Positions 4,050 to 10,405 of a stretch of 11,577 nucleotides of DNA are shown here, in pieces. Location: contig JANPJS010000178.1 of the NCBI GenBank assembly GCA_031425655.1, positions 1 through 11,577 of the forward strand, written 5' to 3'. Origin of the DNA: Abditibacteriaceae bacterium (GTDB lineage: Bacteria; Armatimonadota; Abditibacteriia; Abditibacteriales; Abditibacteriaceae). The stretch's first letter is position 1; the number at the start of each line of letters is the position of its first letter. Position numbers and translations under genes: made by a program. The notes under the pieces are model-generated. The model saw only the letters and a program-made list of their open reading frames with translations, had not been told where the DNA came from and did no database searches.

Positions 4050-6191
4050 ATGGCCAAAAATAAGCATAAAATTACGATCCAGCCAAGAAAAATAGAGAAA
4101 AATACGGCGCCTGAACCCGTCGCCGCTGCGTGGGGCGAAGACGACGCGCGCTTCTGGAAAATGTCGCTGCTCCTGCTGCTGGTTGGCATCGCGCTGCGAC
4201 AAATCGCCCTTGCGAGGGCGCCTTATTCGTCGGATGAAGCGATTCACGCTTGGTTTTCGCTGGGCTTCGAGAATTACAACTACGACCCGGTTTACCACGG
4301 GCCGCTGATGTATCATTTGCTGGCGACGGCGTTCGCCTTTATCAAGCCGCACGCGGCGGGCGATTTCGTAGGGCGCATGGTGCCGTCGCTACTGGGCATC
4401 GCGCTTTTGGCGGTCACGATTGGCCCGGCGCGGCGCTGGCTGGGGCCAAAAGGTGCGCTGTGGAGCCTCGCTCTGCTGGCGATTTCCCCCGTCATGGTCG
4501 CGTATCATCGCTTCCTGATTCACGATGCGCTGACGATGTTGCTGACTTTCGGCGCGGTTTTATGCTTTCAGCGAACGCTCGAAACGCACAGTTGGACGCA
4601 AAGCGGACGGCAAGCGCGTGTCGGTTTGGCCGCGTTGCTGGCGCTGTTTTTGGCGACAAAAGCGAACGCCTTTTTCATCATCGCCATGCTTTTGGCGTTC
4701 TGGATCGTGGTTTTGCTGACGCGAAAACGCGGAGCGATAAGCGAAGAGCGTGCACTCCCGAAATCACTCGAAACATGGCTGCCCATCGCGCTTTTTGGCG
4801 CTGTTGCCATTGCCTCGCATTTCGCGCTGCGCGACCCGGATTTCAAGCCGTATATCGACAATTTGCAAAAAACCGGTATCGGCGATTTGCCTTTAGCCTT
4901 CGCAAAACTGATTCACAGCGAAACCACTTACAAGATATTTTGCGTGTTCAGCGTCGGATTGCTGGGCTTGTGGCTGCTTTTCGCGCCGCGTGCCGCGCAG
5001 CCGGACGCGCCAACCGCTGACGAAGCCGCTGCGCGCCCGAAATTCGATTTACGCACGCCGCTTTTAGCCGGATGGGTGACGGTTTTTCTTTGCGCTTATC
5101 TTTACGGACACGGCGTATTGTGGTGGAAAGTGCCGGTCGAAATGGCGCGCAATCCCGATGTGTGGTCGCAGAAATTCGCGGCCAGCGCCGGAGCCATTAA
5201 ATCCGCCGCGTTTCGTCAATATCAGTTCGATCCGGCGACGGACGGCAATTGGACGGCGCCGAAAATCGGCGAAGCGCCCGACTGGGATTCCGCGACGATG
5301 GCGATTCCGCGAATGCTGCACTATTGGGGCGGGCAGCAGGCCAAACCGCGCCTGCCGGGGCCGCACGATTACTATTTGGTGCTGATGATTCTTTATGAAT
5401 TGCCCCTCGTTCTTGCAGCTATCGGCGGCATCGTTCACGCTGCAAAAAAGCGCACGCCGTTCGGTGATTTGCTGCTGTGGTGGGCGTTCACGTCGTTCGT
5501 GCTTTACGCCGTAGCCAACGAAAAAGTGCCGTGGCTGCTGACGCAAATCATGCTGCCGCTGATCCTCTTAGCCGGGATGTGGCTGGGCAGTTTGGAATTG
5601 AAAGCCGAACGGCGCAGCGTGTTTTACGCGGCGTGCGCGCTCAGCGCGATTTTCCTGCTCCGCAATGTCGCTGCGACGAGTTTCGGGCGCCCGGTAGACC
5701 AACACGAGCCGCTTTATTACGCGCAAACAACCGAAACTTTCCGCGACGAATACGGAAAAGCCTTGCTTAAAACGGCGCAGCAGCCCGGCGATGTTTGGGT
5801 GGATTTTGCCGTGCAATGGCCCGTCGTGTGGTGGTTGCGCGAAGGCGCGCCGCTCAAAGGCGCGTCCAACATGATACTCAGCGGCATCCCACCGACGCAG
5901 CCGACGCGCGTTGCCATTGTTTCCGTCGAAGTGTGGGAAAAACACAAGACGCAAATGACAGATTGGGAAGCGAAGAAAGTGGATTACTTCGTCTGGCCGC
6001 GCGCCTCGTGGCCGGCGATTCGCCCCGACCGCTTGTGGAAATTCTGGGTGCATCGCCTCGTCAATCCCGAATATAAACAACCCGGTTATCGCGAGTGGGA
6101 TTCCAACGGCAAAATCAAAGACAACAGCCTGCTCGCCGCTCCCGGCGAATGGAGCCACAGCGAAATCATCATAGCGACGAAAAAGGGATGA
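4050..6191 (+). CDS. TIGR03663 / Agl23-like polytopic membrane protein (PMT/ArnT-like GT-C superfamily; 'flippase activity-associated')
   Basis: 713 aa; motifs DEAIHAWFS, YNYDPVYHGPLMYH, LLAISPVMVAYHRF, ATK, GPHDYY..LYELP and EKVPWL. Confidence 0.88.
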   Translation: MAKNKHKITIQPRKIEKNTAPEPVAAAWGEDDARFWKMSLLLLLVGIALRQIALARAPYSSDEAIHAWFSLGFENYNYDPVYHGPLMYHLLATAFAFIKPHAAGDFVGRMVPSLLGIALLAVTIGPARRWLGPKGALWSLALLAISPVMVAYHRFLIHDALTMLLTFGAVLCFQRTLETHSWTQSGRQARVGLAALLALFLATKANAFFIIAMLLAFWIVVLLTRKRGAISEERALPKSLETWLPIALFGAVAIASHFALRDPDFKPYIDNLQKTGIGDLPLAFAKLIHSETTYKIFCVFSVGLLGLWLLFAPRAAQPDAPTADEAAARPKFDLRTPLLAGWVTVFLCAYLYGHGVLWWKVPVEMARNPDVWSQKFAASAGAIKSAAFRQYQFDPATDGNWTAPKIGEAPDWDSATMAIPRMLHYWGGQQAKPRLPGPHDYYLVLMILYELPLVLAAIGGIVHAAKKRTPFGDLLLWWAFTSFVLYAVANEKVPWLLTQIMLPLILLAGMWLGSLELKAERRSVFYAACALSAIFLLRNVAATSFGRPVDQHEPLYYAQTTETFRDEYGKALLKTAQQPGDVWVDFAVQWPVVWWLREGAPLKGASNMILSGIPPTQPTRVAIVSVEVWEKHKTQMTDWEAKKVDYFVWPRASWPAIRPDRLWKFWVHRLVNPEYKQPGYREWDSNGKIKDNSLLAAPGEWSHSEIIIATKKG

Positions 6192-6274
6192 AGGCGGAAG
6201 GATGAGGGATGAAAGAAGCGCCTCCGGCGCGAAGCGCGAATTTTCATCCCTCATCCTTCCGCCCTCATCCCTTT
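6182..6274. repeat. Inverted array of heptamer-like units (GGATGA core) between convergent genes; likely bidirectional terminator
   Basis: 33-bp IR 6182-6214/6242-6274 with one mismatch; overlaps the TGA stop at 6189-6191. Confidence 0.85.
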
Positions 6275-6277
6275 CTT

Positions 6278-6943
6278 TTAGTCTCGTTCGAGGCCTTTGC
6301 CATAGCCTTCGAGAAACTCGCGCCACTCGGCGCGGCGGATGGCCGAAACGAAGCGCGGAAACGAAATGTAGGGCACGTAGCGCGGCTTATAAGGCGGACG
6401 CGGCAGTCTCATGCCGCATTCCTGCGGCGTGCGGCTGCCTTTCTTGTTGTTACATTTCAAGCAGCTACAAACCACGTTTTCCCAGGTCGTCTCGCCGCCG
6501 CGATGGCGCGGAAAAACGTGGTCAATCGTCAGAGTTTGCTTCGAGCCGCAGTAAACGCAGGTGTAATCGTCGCGCGCCAGCACGGCTTTGCGCGAAAGCT
6601 TTAGGCGCGGCAGCGGACGGCGAATGTTGGTGTGCAGACGCACCACGCTGGGCACCTCATGCGCGCCGCCCGTCGAGATCAGGATAGTCTCCGACCAGCG
6701 CAGCACTTCGGCTTTGTCCAGCCACACCAATGCCATGCCGCGACGCACGCCGCAGATGTTGAGCGGCTCGAAGTTGTGATTGAGCACCAGCACGCCGCTG
6801 TCGGACAACCCGTAATGGGCGCCTTGCAGCTCGTGCTCGTGCTCGCACAGAGACGGTGGATGTTGCTGCTCCGGCACGTTCGCCGAGCGCACCGTGCGGC
6901 GCTCGTGGCGAGTGGCGGAAGCAGACTTGCGATTGTGCTTCAT
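6278..6943 (-). CDS. HNH endonuclease (McrA/HNH_5-like) with N-terminal VLVLNxxxEPL domain
   Basis: RDDYTCVYCG, LTIDHVFPRHRGG, WENVVCSCLKCNNKKG (Zn-binding CxxC pairs plus HNH); SD AGGAGG 4 nt before the ATG at 6943. Confidence 0.92.
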   Translation of the reverse strand: MKHNRKSASATRHERRTVRSANVPEQQHPPSLCEHEHELQGAHYGLSDSGVLVLNHNFEPLNICGVRRGMALVWLDKAEVLRWSETILISTGGAHEVPSVVRLHTNIRRPLPRLKLSRKAVLARDDYTCVYCGSKQTLTIDHVFPRHRGGETTWENVVCSCLKCNNKKGSRTPQECGMRLPRPPYKPRYVPYISFPRFVSAIRRAEWREFLEGYGKGLERD

Positions 6944-6947
6944 GTTG

Positions 6948-7075
6948 CCTCCTGGGCATCGCTACCCGTGAGCCGATAGGCTCGTAAGCCTTCAGGTTTC
7001 CAGCCTGACGGCTCGTGCCGGCGGCTTAGCTGAAGAGATGAATAGATTTCTCTCCTTTGCGCCGCCGGTCTTCAT
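6948..7075 (-). ncRNA. Candidate structured RNA leader of the HNH gene
   Basis: Four consecutive stem-loops folded by eye: 7068-7018, 7014-6986, 6983-6970 and 6967-6954 (GCGA GNRA loop), ending at the SD. No family recognised. Confidence 0.4.
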
Positions 7076-7080
7076 ATATC

Positions 7081-7104
7081 GAAATAGCCCCGAAAGGCTT
7101 TTTC
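7081..7104 (-). terminator. Small UUCG-loop hairpin after the TPR gene
   Basis: Minus strand AGCCT-TTCG-GGGCT followed by ATTTC, just after the stop at 7106; weak U-tract. Confidence 0.4.
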
Positions 7105-7105
7105 T

Positions 7106-7846
7106 TCAAATTCCCAACTCTCGTCGCCGCTGATCGTTGATGCGCGCGGCGACGGTGGTGGCATCAATGGCCGATGCGACGTAAACCATCAGCCACGCGA
7201 ACATCATTAGCCAGAAAAAGAACTGCGTGCCGCTGCTCATCGCGTCAATGGCATCGCCGATGCCGGGCACGAATCGCTGTCCTTTGGCCTCGTTCCACAC
7301 ACGGCGCAGATGCGTCATCAGCGGATACGACCAACAACTCAAAGCCGCCAGCCACAACGCGAAATGGATTCCGGCTTTTTCCCACTCATCGTTGTAAAAC
7401 TGCCCGGCGCCCGGCACTAAAACCGAAAGTCCCAGCGCCAGCGCCGGCTTTTTGTCGAGCAGCTTGTCGCTGATGCCGCCCGACTCCAAAATGTCCTGCT
7501 TGAGCAGCTTGTCGCGCTCCACTTCGGCCAAATCGAGCCGCGCGACGGCCATTTTCTCCTCGAACGGTGCGTAATCGGGATGGCATTTCTGTCCGTGTTC
7601 GAAGACTTGAATCGCCTTTTCCTGCTCGGCGTCTTCGAGGAAAATATCGCCGAGCAATTCCAGCGCGCCGATGTCGGACGGATCAACTTTCAACGCCTGC
7701 GCCAGCGTTTTCTTGGCCTCAGCGCGCTCGCCGCGTCTGAGCGTCATGCGCGCCGTCATCACCAGTTGCCCGGCTTGCTCCGAACGCCGCTCGGCTTCCA
7801 ATTCACTCGCTGCGCTTTCCCGATTTTCGGTCATGCTGTCGTTCAT
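7106..7846 (-). CDS. Tetratricopeptide-repeat protein with C-terminal membrane domain
   Basis: TPR-like helices (AKKTLAQALKVDPSDIGALELLGDIFLE..AIQVFE), then a TM2-like motif LALGLSVLVPGAGQFYN and hydrophobic helices ending ASAIDA. Start could also be 7834. Confidence 0.8.
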   Translation of the reverse strand: MNDSMTENRESAASELEAERRSEQAGQLVMTARMTLRRGERAEAKKTLAQALKVDPSDIGALELLGDIFLEDAEQEKAIQVFEHGQKCHPDYAPFEEKMAVARLDLAEVERDKLLKQDILESGGISDKLLDKKPALALGLSVLVPGAGQFYNDEWEKAGIHFALWLAALSCWSYPLMTHLRRVWNEAKGQRFVPGIGDAIDAMSSGTQFFFWLMMFAWLMVYVASAIDATTVAARINDQRRRELGI

Positions 7847-7940: not shown

Positions 7941-8438
7941 TTAGATGTTTTGCCTCGCGGGGCTTTGCTCTATCCTGCTTTCGCTGCCTTCTCCGTCGCT
8001 TTCGTCGCTTTCTTCACCATCGGGCGCCTCGATGAACGAGGCTCTGGCATCGGCCCACAAGCGTTCCAGATCGTAAAATTCGCGCGTTTCGTCGTCGAAA
8101 ACGTGCAAAATCACGTCGCCATAATCGAGAACGATCCACAAACTGGCCGAATCGCCTTCGGCTCTGGCGCGTTGCTGTGCGCCTTCACGCAAACGGTCGC
8201 GCACGCCTTGCGCGATGCTTTGAATATGCGTGGTGCTGGTGCCGCTGCACATCACGAAAAAGTCGGCTAAAGTCGTGACTTCGCGCACATCCAAAACCGC
8301 GATATTATGCGCCTTCATCTCGTCGGCGGCCTCGACAATCAAATCGCGTTTGAGTTCGGGGTCAATCTGCGGCTCAATCGGCTGCGACGGCGCGGCGTCG
8401 GGTATGAACTTTTCGTTGATCAATGTTTCTTCAGTCAT
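7941..8438 (-). CDS. rsfS: Ribosome silencing factor (iojap family)
   Basis: KAHNIAVLDV, ADFFVMCSGTS, EG..WIVLDYGDVILHVF..REFYDLERLWADA; ATGA overlap with nadD, the usual synteny. Confidence 0.96.
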   Translation of the reverse strand: MTEETLINEKFIPDAAPSQPIEPQIDPELKRDLIVEAADEMKAHNIAVLDVREVTTLADFFVMCSGTSTTHIQSIAQGVRDRLREGAQQRARAEGDSASLWIVLDYGDVILHVFDDETREFYDLERLWADARASFIEAPDGEESDESDGEGSESRIEQSPARQNI

Positions 8439-9049
8439 TTGCTAAAAACCGGCTCTAAATACAACCCTCGTGCGCGAACTTCACGTTCCACGGCGTCGGG
8501 CACTAAATAGCGAATCGGCAATCCGTCCTTTACACGTTGGCGAAGCTCGCGGCTGGCAATATCCAACCCGACCGTCTCCACAAAATCCACTCGCGCACGC
8601 TGCGCGTCATTCAACTGCGTATTCGCGGCATTTAAATCGAAATCGGGCCGCGTAAACGCCAAAAAGCGGCACATTTGGAACAACTCCGCGCCGCGAAACC
8701 AAGTCAGCACTTCGCCGATGGAATCGGCGCCTACGATATAACAAAGCTCTGCTTCGGCGCCGAACTGTTTTTGAAACTCGTTCAGCGTATCGAAGGCATA
8801 CGACGGGCCGGGCCGATCAATTTCGATGCGCGAAACTTCAAAGTGCGGGTGAAGTTCGACGGCCAGACGCGTCAGCGCGAATCGCGTTTCCGCATCGGCG
8901 TTGGCCGTTTTGCCCTGCTTGTGCGCCGGTTTGTTATTGGGAAAAAAGACTACCTTTTCCAGCCCGCAGCGCACTCTCGCTTCTTCGGCGATGAACAAGT
9001 GTCCGTGGTGAATCGGGTCGAATGTCCCGCCCATCAAGCCAATTCGCAC
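8435..9049 (-). CDS. nadD: Nicotinate-nucleotide adenylyltransferase
   Basis: GGTFDPIHHGH (HxGH), PAHK, GPSY, IVGADS..W, DIASRELR and IRYLVP; GTG start. Confidence 0.97.
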   Translation of the reverse strand: MRIGLMGGTFDPIHHGHLFIAEEARVRCGLEKVVFFPNNKPAHKQGKTANADAETRFALTRLAVELHPHFEVSRIEIDRPGPSYAFDTLNEFQKQFGAEAELCYIVGADSIGEVLTWFRGAELFQMCRFLAFTRPDFDLNAANTQLNDAQRARVDFVETVGLDIASRELRQRVKDGLPIRYLVPDAVEREVRARGLYLEPVFSK

Positions 9050-9120: not shown

Positions 9121-9573
9121 TCACTTGTCGTCAGTTGGCTTGTCGGAGGTAGAGCTATCCTTCTCTTTGTCCAACATAATCTCATCTATATAGCTTTTTA
9201 CACCAGAGACATTGTATTGGACAGCAGATAGCAAATCTTGCAAAATGGGCACAGTTGGAAAGCGCCAAAGGCTATTCCATGACTCGTCGGCAATTTCAAG
9301 ATAAACATCATCCGTCCACTTAGGTGAGTCAAAGAGTGAAGTTAACCTCACAGTGTTCAATGGCTGCGGTGCGCGTGGATCAAACCAGTAACGCTTTTTG
9401 ACAAGACGCAAATTTCGACCTTTGTCTTTCGTCTGGAATGACATCTCGATATATTCAGGCGGAACCTTTTGGGGAGCAGGACGCACCTCAGACCTCCAAA
9501 CTAACTTGCCCTCCTGCGTCAACCGCAGCAAGTGCTTCACTGTTTCATGAATCCGTTCGTCTCCAGTTGCCAT
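9121..9573 (-). CDS. Hypothetical soluble protein (150 aa), low GC
   Basis: ATG 1 nt after the upstream stop (TAAcATG); globular-looking sequence; 41% GC counted over 9121-9240. Confidence 0.8.
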   Translation of the reverse strand: MATGDERIHETVKHLLRLTQEGKLVWRSEVRPAPQKVPPEYIEMSFQTKDKGRNLRLVKKRYWFDPRAPQPLNTVRLTSLFDSPKWTDDVYLEIADESWNSLWRFPTVPILQDLLSAVQYNVSGVKSYIDEIMLDKEKDSSTSDKPTDDK

Positions 9574-9574
9574 G

Positions 9575-10012
9575 TTATGCCCTTGTTGTCCTTTCCAATT
9601 GAATGTAAGGTAAACGACTTTCGACTTCTCCTATTGCCTTCCACGCATCGTAGAACGGCTCTTTTTCGGTAGCGATCTTTGCCTTTTCTATTGATTCCAA
9701 AGCAACCTTAACAAGGCTGGTGTCATCGGTAGAAAGTTCAACGCCTGACAATGAAACCAAAGCAGCTTTCACTGATGACAAGGCTGGAATGATATTATCT
9801 CGTGAGTCTGGAAAGTTTCCGAGGGCCGTTGCAACCGCAGCATTATGTTTCCTCAAATCTTCCATGACAACTGGGACTGTGGCAGCAAAGTTCCGCATGG
9901 CATCCCACTTCTTAACTCTTTGCAAGGTCATGAACGTGACTACTAAGCCAACAATGGATACGATCAAACCTAAGATTGACGCCCAACTTGAGATAGTCGA
10001 AAGCTTGTCCAT
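9575..10012 (-). CDS. Hypothetical protein with single N-terminal TM anchor and helical soluble domain (145 aa)
   Basis: SD GGAG upstream of ATG at 10012 (preferred to 10096); hydrophobic ASILGLIVSIVGLVVTFM followed by basic QRVKK. Confidence 0.78.
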   Translation of the reverse strand: MDKLSTISSWASILGLIVSIVGLVVTFMTLQRVKKWDAMRNFAATVPVVMEDLRKHNAAVATALGNFPDSRDNIIPALSSVKAALVSLSGVELSTDDTSLVKVALESIEKAKIATEKEPFYDAWKAIGEVESRLPYIQLERTTRA

Positions 10013-10105
10013 TGTATTTTCTCCCGTCCTGATTGCATCAAGTGGGCTAAGCATCGTTCCAATTGGCAAGTAGAGGTGTCCGATTCGTATCAGCATCTCT
10101 GTTCT

Positions 10106-10405
10106 TCACTTCCCGATTTTGCGCCGCGTTTTCTTGACTTTTTCCAGCACCACGTCGTCGGGAGTCGCTTCGGTTTTAACGACTTCTGCTGGCGGAACGG
10201 AAGCGAAAGATAATTTAATCGCTTTGCCTACGTCGTCGAAGAAATGAAATTTCAATGCCTTGTGGACTTCGTTGGGGATGTCGTCCAAGTCGCGGTCGTT
10301 TTCCTGTGTAAGGATGATTTCGGTTAATCCAGAGAGGGGCACGGCCAAGACTTTTTCTCCGTGGTGAATCGGGTTGAATGTCCCGCCCATCAAGCCAATT
10401 TGCAC
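10106..10405 (-). pseudogene. Chimeric ORF: nadD N-terminal 16 codons fused in frame to a Lon protease C-terminal fragment
   Basis: MQIGLMGGTFNPIHHG is the nadD copy; EKVLAVPLSGLTEIILTQENDRDLDDIPNEVHKALKFHFFDDV..AIKLSF resembles the Lon tail EKxLAAHRAGIxxIILPxENxxDLxxIP. Confidence 0.85.

Follow-up and report, generated by a model that had tools for sequence, protein, structure and literature searches.

The window, by which we mean the whole analysed stretch of 11,577 nt, carries on its minus strand a gene for a 221-aa HNH nuclease that is preceded by a gene for a TPR/membrane protein and, further upstream, by rsfS. The coordinates of the genes and of all further elements are compiled in Table 1. 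The order rsfS–TPR–nuclease is stable in the family: the TPR gene lies upstream of the nuclease gene in all 25 family loci L001–L025, and rsfS was found beyond it in 20 of 136 ortholog loci, a count that is limited by flank length. The named close homologues of the nuclease come from the Abditibacteriaceae, phylum Armatimonadota.

Table 1. Genes, protein domains and leader elements at the nuclease locus
Feature	Position	Strand	Basis and remarks
IshB-type PLMP+HNH nuclease gene	6278–6943	–	221 aa; ORF and Pfam HNH; single copy, vertically inherited
N-terminal extension, residues 1–48	6800–6943	–	Homologue comparison; basic, His-rich, variable, HPPS motif
PLMP domain, residues 49–110	6614–6799	–	Profile-profile, Pfam RRXRR and structure searches
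HNH nuclease core (His-Asn-Asn type), containing four cysteines of the zinc type	6404–6592	–	Invariant residues; TbaIscB profile match
Shine-Dalgarno (SD) sequence AGGAGG of the nuclease gene	6948–6953	–	Sequence; start Met common to close relatives
Conserved hairpin with 3-nt bulge and internal loop	7018–7068	–	Five sequences; genus-level 5′ leader element
Outer (first) hairpin, stem arms	7068–7061 and 7025–7018	–	
Three small hairpins	6954–7016	–	Among the loci seen, present in this genome only; z –2.9 when folded alone
Second hairpin, arms	7014–7004 and 6996–6986	–	
Third hairpin	6983–6970	–	
Fourth hairpin	6967–6954	–	
AT-rich element just 5′ of the conserved hairpin	7069–7086	–	Possible –10 region
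27-codon upstream ORF, probably chance	6992–7075	–	ATG not common to four relatives
TPR/membrane protein gene	7106–7846	–	Pfam; conserved upstream neighbour in the family
rsfS (ribosome silencing factor)	7941–8438	–	PF02410; next gene upstream of the TPR gene
33-bp inverted repeat, REP-like, 3′ of the nuclease gene	6182–6274	.	Outside the nuclease system

At a match threshold of E 1e-25 exactly one copy of the nuclease gene was present in 138 of 150 genomes of the phylum, and none carried two. Among 82 neighbouring ORFs that were scanned (from 116 listed) there was no transposase; housekeeping families were found, and 5 of the 82 were trpS genes lying directly downstream. The nuclease gene is thus chromosomal, domesticated and vertically inherited, and it is not transposon cargo.

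Some further observations were made along the window and among the homologues. The inverted repeat at 6182–6274 sits between convergent genes and belongs to an abundant, genome-wide REP-like family with 202 BLAST matches in the genome at E 0.01. The short ORF at 10106–10405 resembles at its start the cytidylyltransferase gene at 8435–9049, runs on as a C-terminal fragment of Lon protease and looks like a recombination scar beside a low-GC insert (9121–10096, GC about 0.45). Apparent fusions of 340–600 aa, three of them with parts of a CCA-adding enzyme, were rejected as true fusions and are interpreted as adjacent genes joined by frameshifts in the assemblies. In one lineage, the frameshifted read-throughs P0179, P0189 and P0216 suggest a CCA-adding-enzyme gene directly 3′ of the nuclease gene.

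Domain architecture of the nuclease

An HNH domain was assigned by Pfam to residues 129–180. Its catalytic residues H142, N156 and N165 as well as the cysteines C129, C132, C161 and C164 are the same in all 71 aligned family sequences. Among solved structures this HNH is closest to those of IscB and Cas9d, with TbaIscB as the best solved relative by profile (E 4e-18). The IscB model itself matches only with its positions 184–242, which are the HNH, and its score of 54 bits lies below the cut-off of 175. The 173-aa core is fully covered by PLMP, HNH and two C-terminal helices; according to this accounting and the IscB model match, the protein contains no RuvC, bridge helix or TAM-interacting region.

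Many homologues carry the name McrA at JGI, and the HNH is indeed similar to that of EcoKMcrA (E 1.3e-5), so that a stand-alone McrA-like restriction or defence nuclease with an incidental leader has to be considered. However, this match is confined to profile positions 71–120, i.e. the HNH, and the N-terminal fold is that of PLMP. Defence genes show a patchy spread, unlike the strict single-copy presence among housekeeping neighbours that we observed here. We therefore regard an McrA-like role as very unlikely.

Searches with the sequence of the N-terminal domain gave faint signals. A full-length Pfam scan of the 221-aa protein yielded no RRXRR match, a pairwise BLAST comparison with IscB of the same phylum aligned the N-termini weakly (E 0.016), and a sequence-profile search of the domain against the PDB returned spurious repeat-protein matches only. 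A profile of 71 family sequences aligned over 35 columns with a profile of five IscB N-termini (probability 84.8%, E 6.6e-6), and 29 of 60 isolated family N-termini matched Pfam RRXRR below its cut-off (best E 0.0019), compared with 4 of 60 for the next family. The link to PLMP came from folds: an AlphaFold model of residues 49–110 (pLDDT 93) was compared with 48,161 solved chains using VIA-align, and the top five were residues 1–56 of IscB or IsrB, with Z 8.0–5.4 and rmsd 1.7–3.1. The next row was IF3 (Z 2.9); the likeness of PLMP to IF3-N has already been published (PMC9581776, in the part consulted). With the same model the top seven Foldseek rows were IscB or IsrB, none at E 0.001 or better, whereas Foldseek with the full-length protein was dominated by the HNH. 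A search of the ESM Atlas found unnamed clusters only. As judged from this predicted fold, the N-terminal domain is a PLMP domain.

A PLMP domain together with an intact HNH and no RuvC corresponds to the IshB architecture. The preliminary description, made from the sequence alone, had proposed a PLMP-like N-terminus, an HNH nuclease of the IshB kind and its domestication, and all three proposals were borne out by the profile and structure searches, the invariant catalytic residues and the single-copy occurrence, respectively. With the N-terminal profile as query 5,768 clusters at 50% identity were recovered, which makes this a very large family.

The core of the protein is 60–87% identical across the family and is preceded in the window by a 48-residue extension. 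Extensions of at least 25 aa occur in 94 of 118 homologues; some genera of the family lack them, and in L018, L020, L022 and L025 only 5–6 aa are present. A PP pair was found in 48 of the 94 extensions against a shuffled mean of 24.7 and maximum of 33, in a set in which kin are not independent. The HPPS/PP motif of the extension (window, P0001–P0120) is similar to the PP(S/T) motif found in some of the upstream-ORF peptides described below, and the extension could be a fused leader peptide.

Folding of the leader

The 162-nt gap between the TPR gene and the nuclease gene (6944–7105) folds on the minus strand with –67.8 kcal/mol (z –4.2), and none of 200 shuffles was as good. All stems that the preliminary description had named were confirmed at their places on this strand, together with the SD sequence and a 7-mer repeat that begins at 7016 and 6985. 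Yet the plus strand of the gap folds equally well (z –4.7), and in the genome 45 of 83 control gaps reach z –4.2 or lower, with a median z of –4.7. These controls were co-directional gaps of 120–220 nt between long ORFs, taken from a crude ORF caller and scored with 25 shuffles each. Since 45 of 83 comparable gaps fold as well, shuffling is the wrong yardstick in this genome and the fold of the leader is ordinary. The three private hairpins would resemble those that occupy many other gaps of the genome. An origin of the leader from a genomic repeat was also considered and rejected, as the gap is single-copy in the genome.

A stretch similar to the AT-rich element was seen in several family members; a sigma-70 scan of the gap found no promoter and no consensus match at 7069–7086. 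No intrinsic terminator was found in the window leader, whose longest T run is 3 and which has no U-tract. One predicted alternative fold masks the SD sequence.

Conservation of the leader among relatives

The first hairpin is known in five sequences, namely the window, the metagenome relative L123 and the genomes G001, G002 and G003. Of 27 family genomes, 4 contained it according to an exact-pattern search, and these 4 belong to one genus; L123 carries it as well. In L123, the protein of which is 84% identical, the hairpin is preserved almost letter for letter, hairpins 2–4 are missing and the SD sequence follows after 2–3 nt; in G001–G003 hairpins 2–4 are replaced by unrelated short hairpins. 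In the alignment of the five sequences 90% of the cells are paired; one pair is compensatory, and one alternates between G-C and G-U. Covariation was not above that of shuffled columns (195 of 500 shuffles were as high), a test in which five close sequences cannot show it either way. Among 67 sources a covariance model of the hairpin recovered the window and L123 alone; when 150 candidates were scored in each of the 27 family genomes, high scores were confined to the four training loci, three others reached 25–29 bits, and nothing was found strongly at ortholog loci outside the five close sequences. Another sub-lineage of the family (L008, L011, L015 and L144) has its own conserved two-hairpin leader, which is unrelated according to the covariance model.

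The unpaired bases of the hairpin are invariant over the five sequences, which suggests a putative binding site and is a feature that an ordinary leader does not explain. An 11-nt indel inside the hairpin shifts the frame of the 27-codon ORF, which argues that the hairpin has been kept as nucleic acid and not as a peptide. Most likely the conserved hairpin acts as a stabilising or protein-binding cis element. The gap as a whole is best read as a locally evolved, fast-evolving mRNA leader composed of one genus-level hairpin and three private ones.

In principle the protein bound by the hairpin could be the nuclease itself: PLMP would bind the 7018–7068 hairpin or the SD-adjacent hairpin and repress its own translation, replacing a lost attenuator. 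In the consulted parts of the structural reports the PLMP domain of IsrB contacts the terminal omegaRNA hairpins as well as the SD of its own gene (PMC9581776), and that of IscB binds terminal hairpins for the most part irrespective of their sequence (PMC9640706). The position of the hairpin in L123 immediately before the SD and the predicted SD-masking fold of the window are consistent with such an operator, as is the finding that 15 of 39 family-level loci have a fold of –10 kcal/mol or lower immediately before the SD, against 22% of 337 control genes, although this enrichment is weak and the kin are not independent. On the other hand, the hairpin is confined to five close sequences while the protein core is well conserved family-wide, and in the window 65 nt separate it from the SD. 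Between the TPR stop and the nuclease start there are 3 to 315 nt (median 102), with at most 80 nt in 16 and at most 60 nt in 12 of 38 distinct loci; duplicate leaders and five loci that lacked an SD-backed start were left out of this count, and one of the loci counted, L147, is a more distant relative. Autoregulation is therefore doubtful, but it is compatible with an otherwise ordinary leader, to which it would add a function for the conserved hairpin.

Search for an omegaRNA

A true PLMP domain, an IscB-like HNH and structured sequence directly 5′ of the ORF had led the preliminary description to a nuclease–RNA pair, in which the gap would encode an omegaRNA- or HEARO-like RNA guiding an IshB nuclease. 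According to the available text of a commentary, omegaRNAs are encoded with IshBs too (PMC11610941). We searched with Rfam and found no HEARO (RF02033) in the window, the gap, 18 ortholog loci, 20 further loci or the genome. The positive controls worked: in the run with the 18 ortholog loci HEARO was detected beside the true IscBs of L035 (90.6 bits) and L036 (86 bits). Rfam searches of the whole window, of 6900–7150 and of 40 related loci likewise returned nothing relevant; the best match in the gap was P26 on the plus strand, with 19.6 bits against a gathering threshold of 36. L035 and L036 are true IscB genes with HEARO RNA in the Armatimonadota genomes G098 and G122. In these two genomes (88% and 92% complete) the single-copy nuclease ortholog was not found with this query.

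Further findings speak against the pair. At most 162 nt are available, about 50 of them conserved, compared with an omegaRNA length of 200–400 nt (PMC9640706, in the part consulted); many ortholog gaps are so short that there is no room for such an RNA. The closest relative lacks three of the four hairpins, the 221-aa protein has none of the additional IscB domains, and signs of mobility are missing. The preliminary description had itself named a lack of leader conservation in orthologs as evidence against its proposal, and this is what we found outside the five close sequences. We give almost no credence to an OMEGA-like pair at this locus. An RNA partner may be encoded elsewhere and be absent from Rfam.

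Attenuator-like leaders in other Armatimonadota

Outside the family a different layout prevails. In 47 of 65 loci of the phylum a terminator-like hairpin with a U-tract was detected no more than 170 nt from the conserved core, compared with 11 in shuffled sequences and 10 on the reverse strand. For named Armatimonadota, a set that partly overlaps these 65 loci, the count was 17 of 18 versus 1 on the reverse strand, and in other named phyla 8 of 59 versus 8, so that the attenuator is not universal. An ATG-started ORF of 20–65 codons ends at the terminator stem in 26 of 46 cases (shuffled mean 9, maximum 18 in 200 rounds). Because kin are not independent, all these counts overstate the significance. 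In most of the loci L063–L122 and L205–L223 a promoter-like site, a short upstream ORF and an intrinsic terminator precede the gene, and the encoded peptides share clade-level motifs (RLLxDSF, FRI and PP(S/T)W). A second clade (L169–L202, 39–49% identity, many near-duplicates) has the ORF-plus-terminator layout with a different peptide. In this clade we also noticed peptides with a PxKH-like motif and an extra conserved small hairpin just before the SD. No Rfam family matched the attenuator-like leaders. As read from the order of these sequence elements, promoter-like site, upstream ORF and terminator would constitute a ribosome-dependent transcription attenuator. Our literature search found no study that combines an HNH endonuclease with attenuation, a leader peptide and ribosome stalling.

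Within the family, terminator-like matches occurred in 4 of 25 gaps (three weak and one repeat-like) and none in the window. The lineage of the window, in which the gene is placed behind rsfS and the TPR gene, lacks the attenuator and is a useful natural control. The 27-codon ORF of the window (7075–6992), with its PP and R-L-E stretch, is reminiscent of the leader peptides of the phylum, and its stop lies inside hairpin 2; upstream ORFs are moreover in use among relatives from other parts of the phylum. The leader could then be a leader-peptide attenuator in the form of a terminator-free translational or Rho-dependent switch. However, start and frame of this ORF are shared by none of the four relatives: the ATG is absent in G001–G003 and L123, and the indel described above shifts the frame. 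Neither an SD before the ATG nor a U-tract is present. A leader-peptide switch in the window is accordingly highly doubtful.

Possible function of the nuclease

Taken together, we consider it probable that the locus encodes a housekeeping-like single-copy PLMP+HNH nuclease which is neither transposon cargo nor paired with an omegaRNA, and that the gap is an ordinary mRNA leader. That a PLMP+HNH protein occurs once per genome throughout a phylum and is not preceded by an omegaRNA argues for a cellular, unguided role. In the lineage of the window the gene is probably transcribed with, or just after, the rsfS–TPR genes. Where the attenuator is present, it would tie nuclease expression to translation of the upstream ORF; the nuclease would then be made when translation is disturbed, pointing to a role under translation stress. 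By analogy with IscB and IsrB, PLMP is the likely RNA-hairpin-binding module, and the nuclease probably acts on RNA or on translation-connected nucleic acid, the substrate being a guess. In the literature searched we found no functional study of IshB.

Phage tRNA clusters commonly harbour HNH genes. Of 9 viral loci, 7 have tRNA genes at a distance of up to 1.5 kb, and of 8 annotated phages 4 have them at up to 2.5 kb, compared with 3 of 60 cellular loci; together with the trpS neighbours these counts, which carry no control for the tRNA density of large phages, are weak hints at a link to tRNA. Phage copies (L052–L060, L291, L292, L294 and L296) are often situated among tRNA genes, and all listed phage records exceed 110 kb. 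In Tunturi_5, 11 tRNA-like genes that are unannotated in the record surround the nuclease gene.

A more far-reaching reading, which we put forward as speculative and rather unlikely in its entirety, would see IshB as an old cellular translation-stress nuclease and not as a miniature RNA-guided transposon nuclease. Its IF3-N-like PLMP would bind tRNA- or SD-proximal hairpins, and an upstream-ORF attenuator would induce it in most Armatimonadota. In the lineage of the window this control would be replaced by binding of PLMP to the hairpin of its own leader, with the PP-containing extension possibly being a fused leader peptide. Large phages carry the gene among tRNA genes. If true, the PLMP and HNH of IscB, and hence the HNH of Cas9, would derive from IshB as a cellular source that still exists. 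For the window alone the value is modest: the leader is ordinary for its genome, and the more interesting attenuator is found in other genomes.

Comparison with known systems

In contrast to McrA, to which the similarity does not extend beyond the HNH, the window protein shows no match to the modified-base-binding N-terminal domain. Upstream-ORF attenuators of the vmlR, whiB7 and topAI type resemble the layouts found in other Armatimonadota and in L169–L202, whereas the window leader lacks a terminator and a conserved upstream ORF. WSL9 of rice, a putative member of the PLMP+HNH family of the window, differs in being eukaryotic. It is encoded by a 564-bp CDS, bears a C-terminal HNH and affects chloroplast RNA splicing and editing; in the part of the report consulted, no endonuclease activity was detected after expression in E. 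coli (PMC7354284).

With IscB and IsrB the window protein shares a homologous PLMP, with IscB also the HNH, and in all cases structured sequence lies 5′ of the ORF. Unlike these proteins it has neither RuvC nor other guide- or target-binding domains, its leader is short, not conserved and without a HEARO match, and the PLMP beta-hairpin is ∼12 residues longer (62 model residues align to about 50). IshB was named by Altae-Tran et al. 2021 and is described, in the accessible parts of later accounts, as a protein of about 180 aa with PLMP and HNH but no RuvC (PMC11610941, PMC10734217, PMC13284715), a combination that serves two reviews as its definition; it has been named as a possible forerunner of IscB and Cas9 that targets RNA (PMC13284715). 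The gene in the window is single-copy, vertically inherited and free of the IS200/IS605 context that the name implies by its reference to a mobile element, and its product has a 48-aa basic extension and no recognisable omegaRNA. In its architecture, a 173-aa core in which PLMP is followed by HNH without RuvC, the window protein is like IshB.
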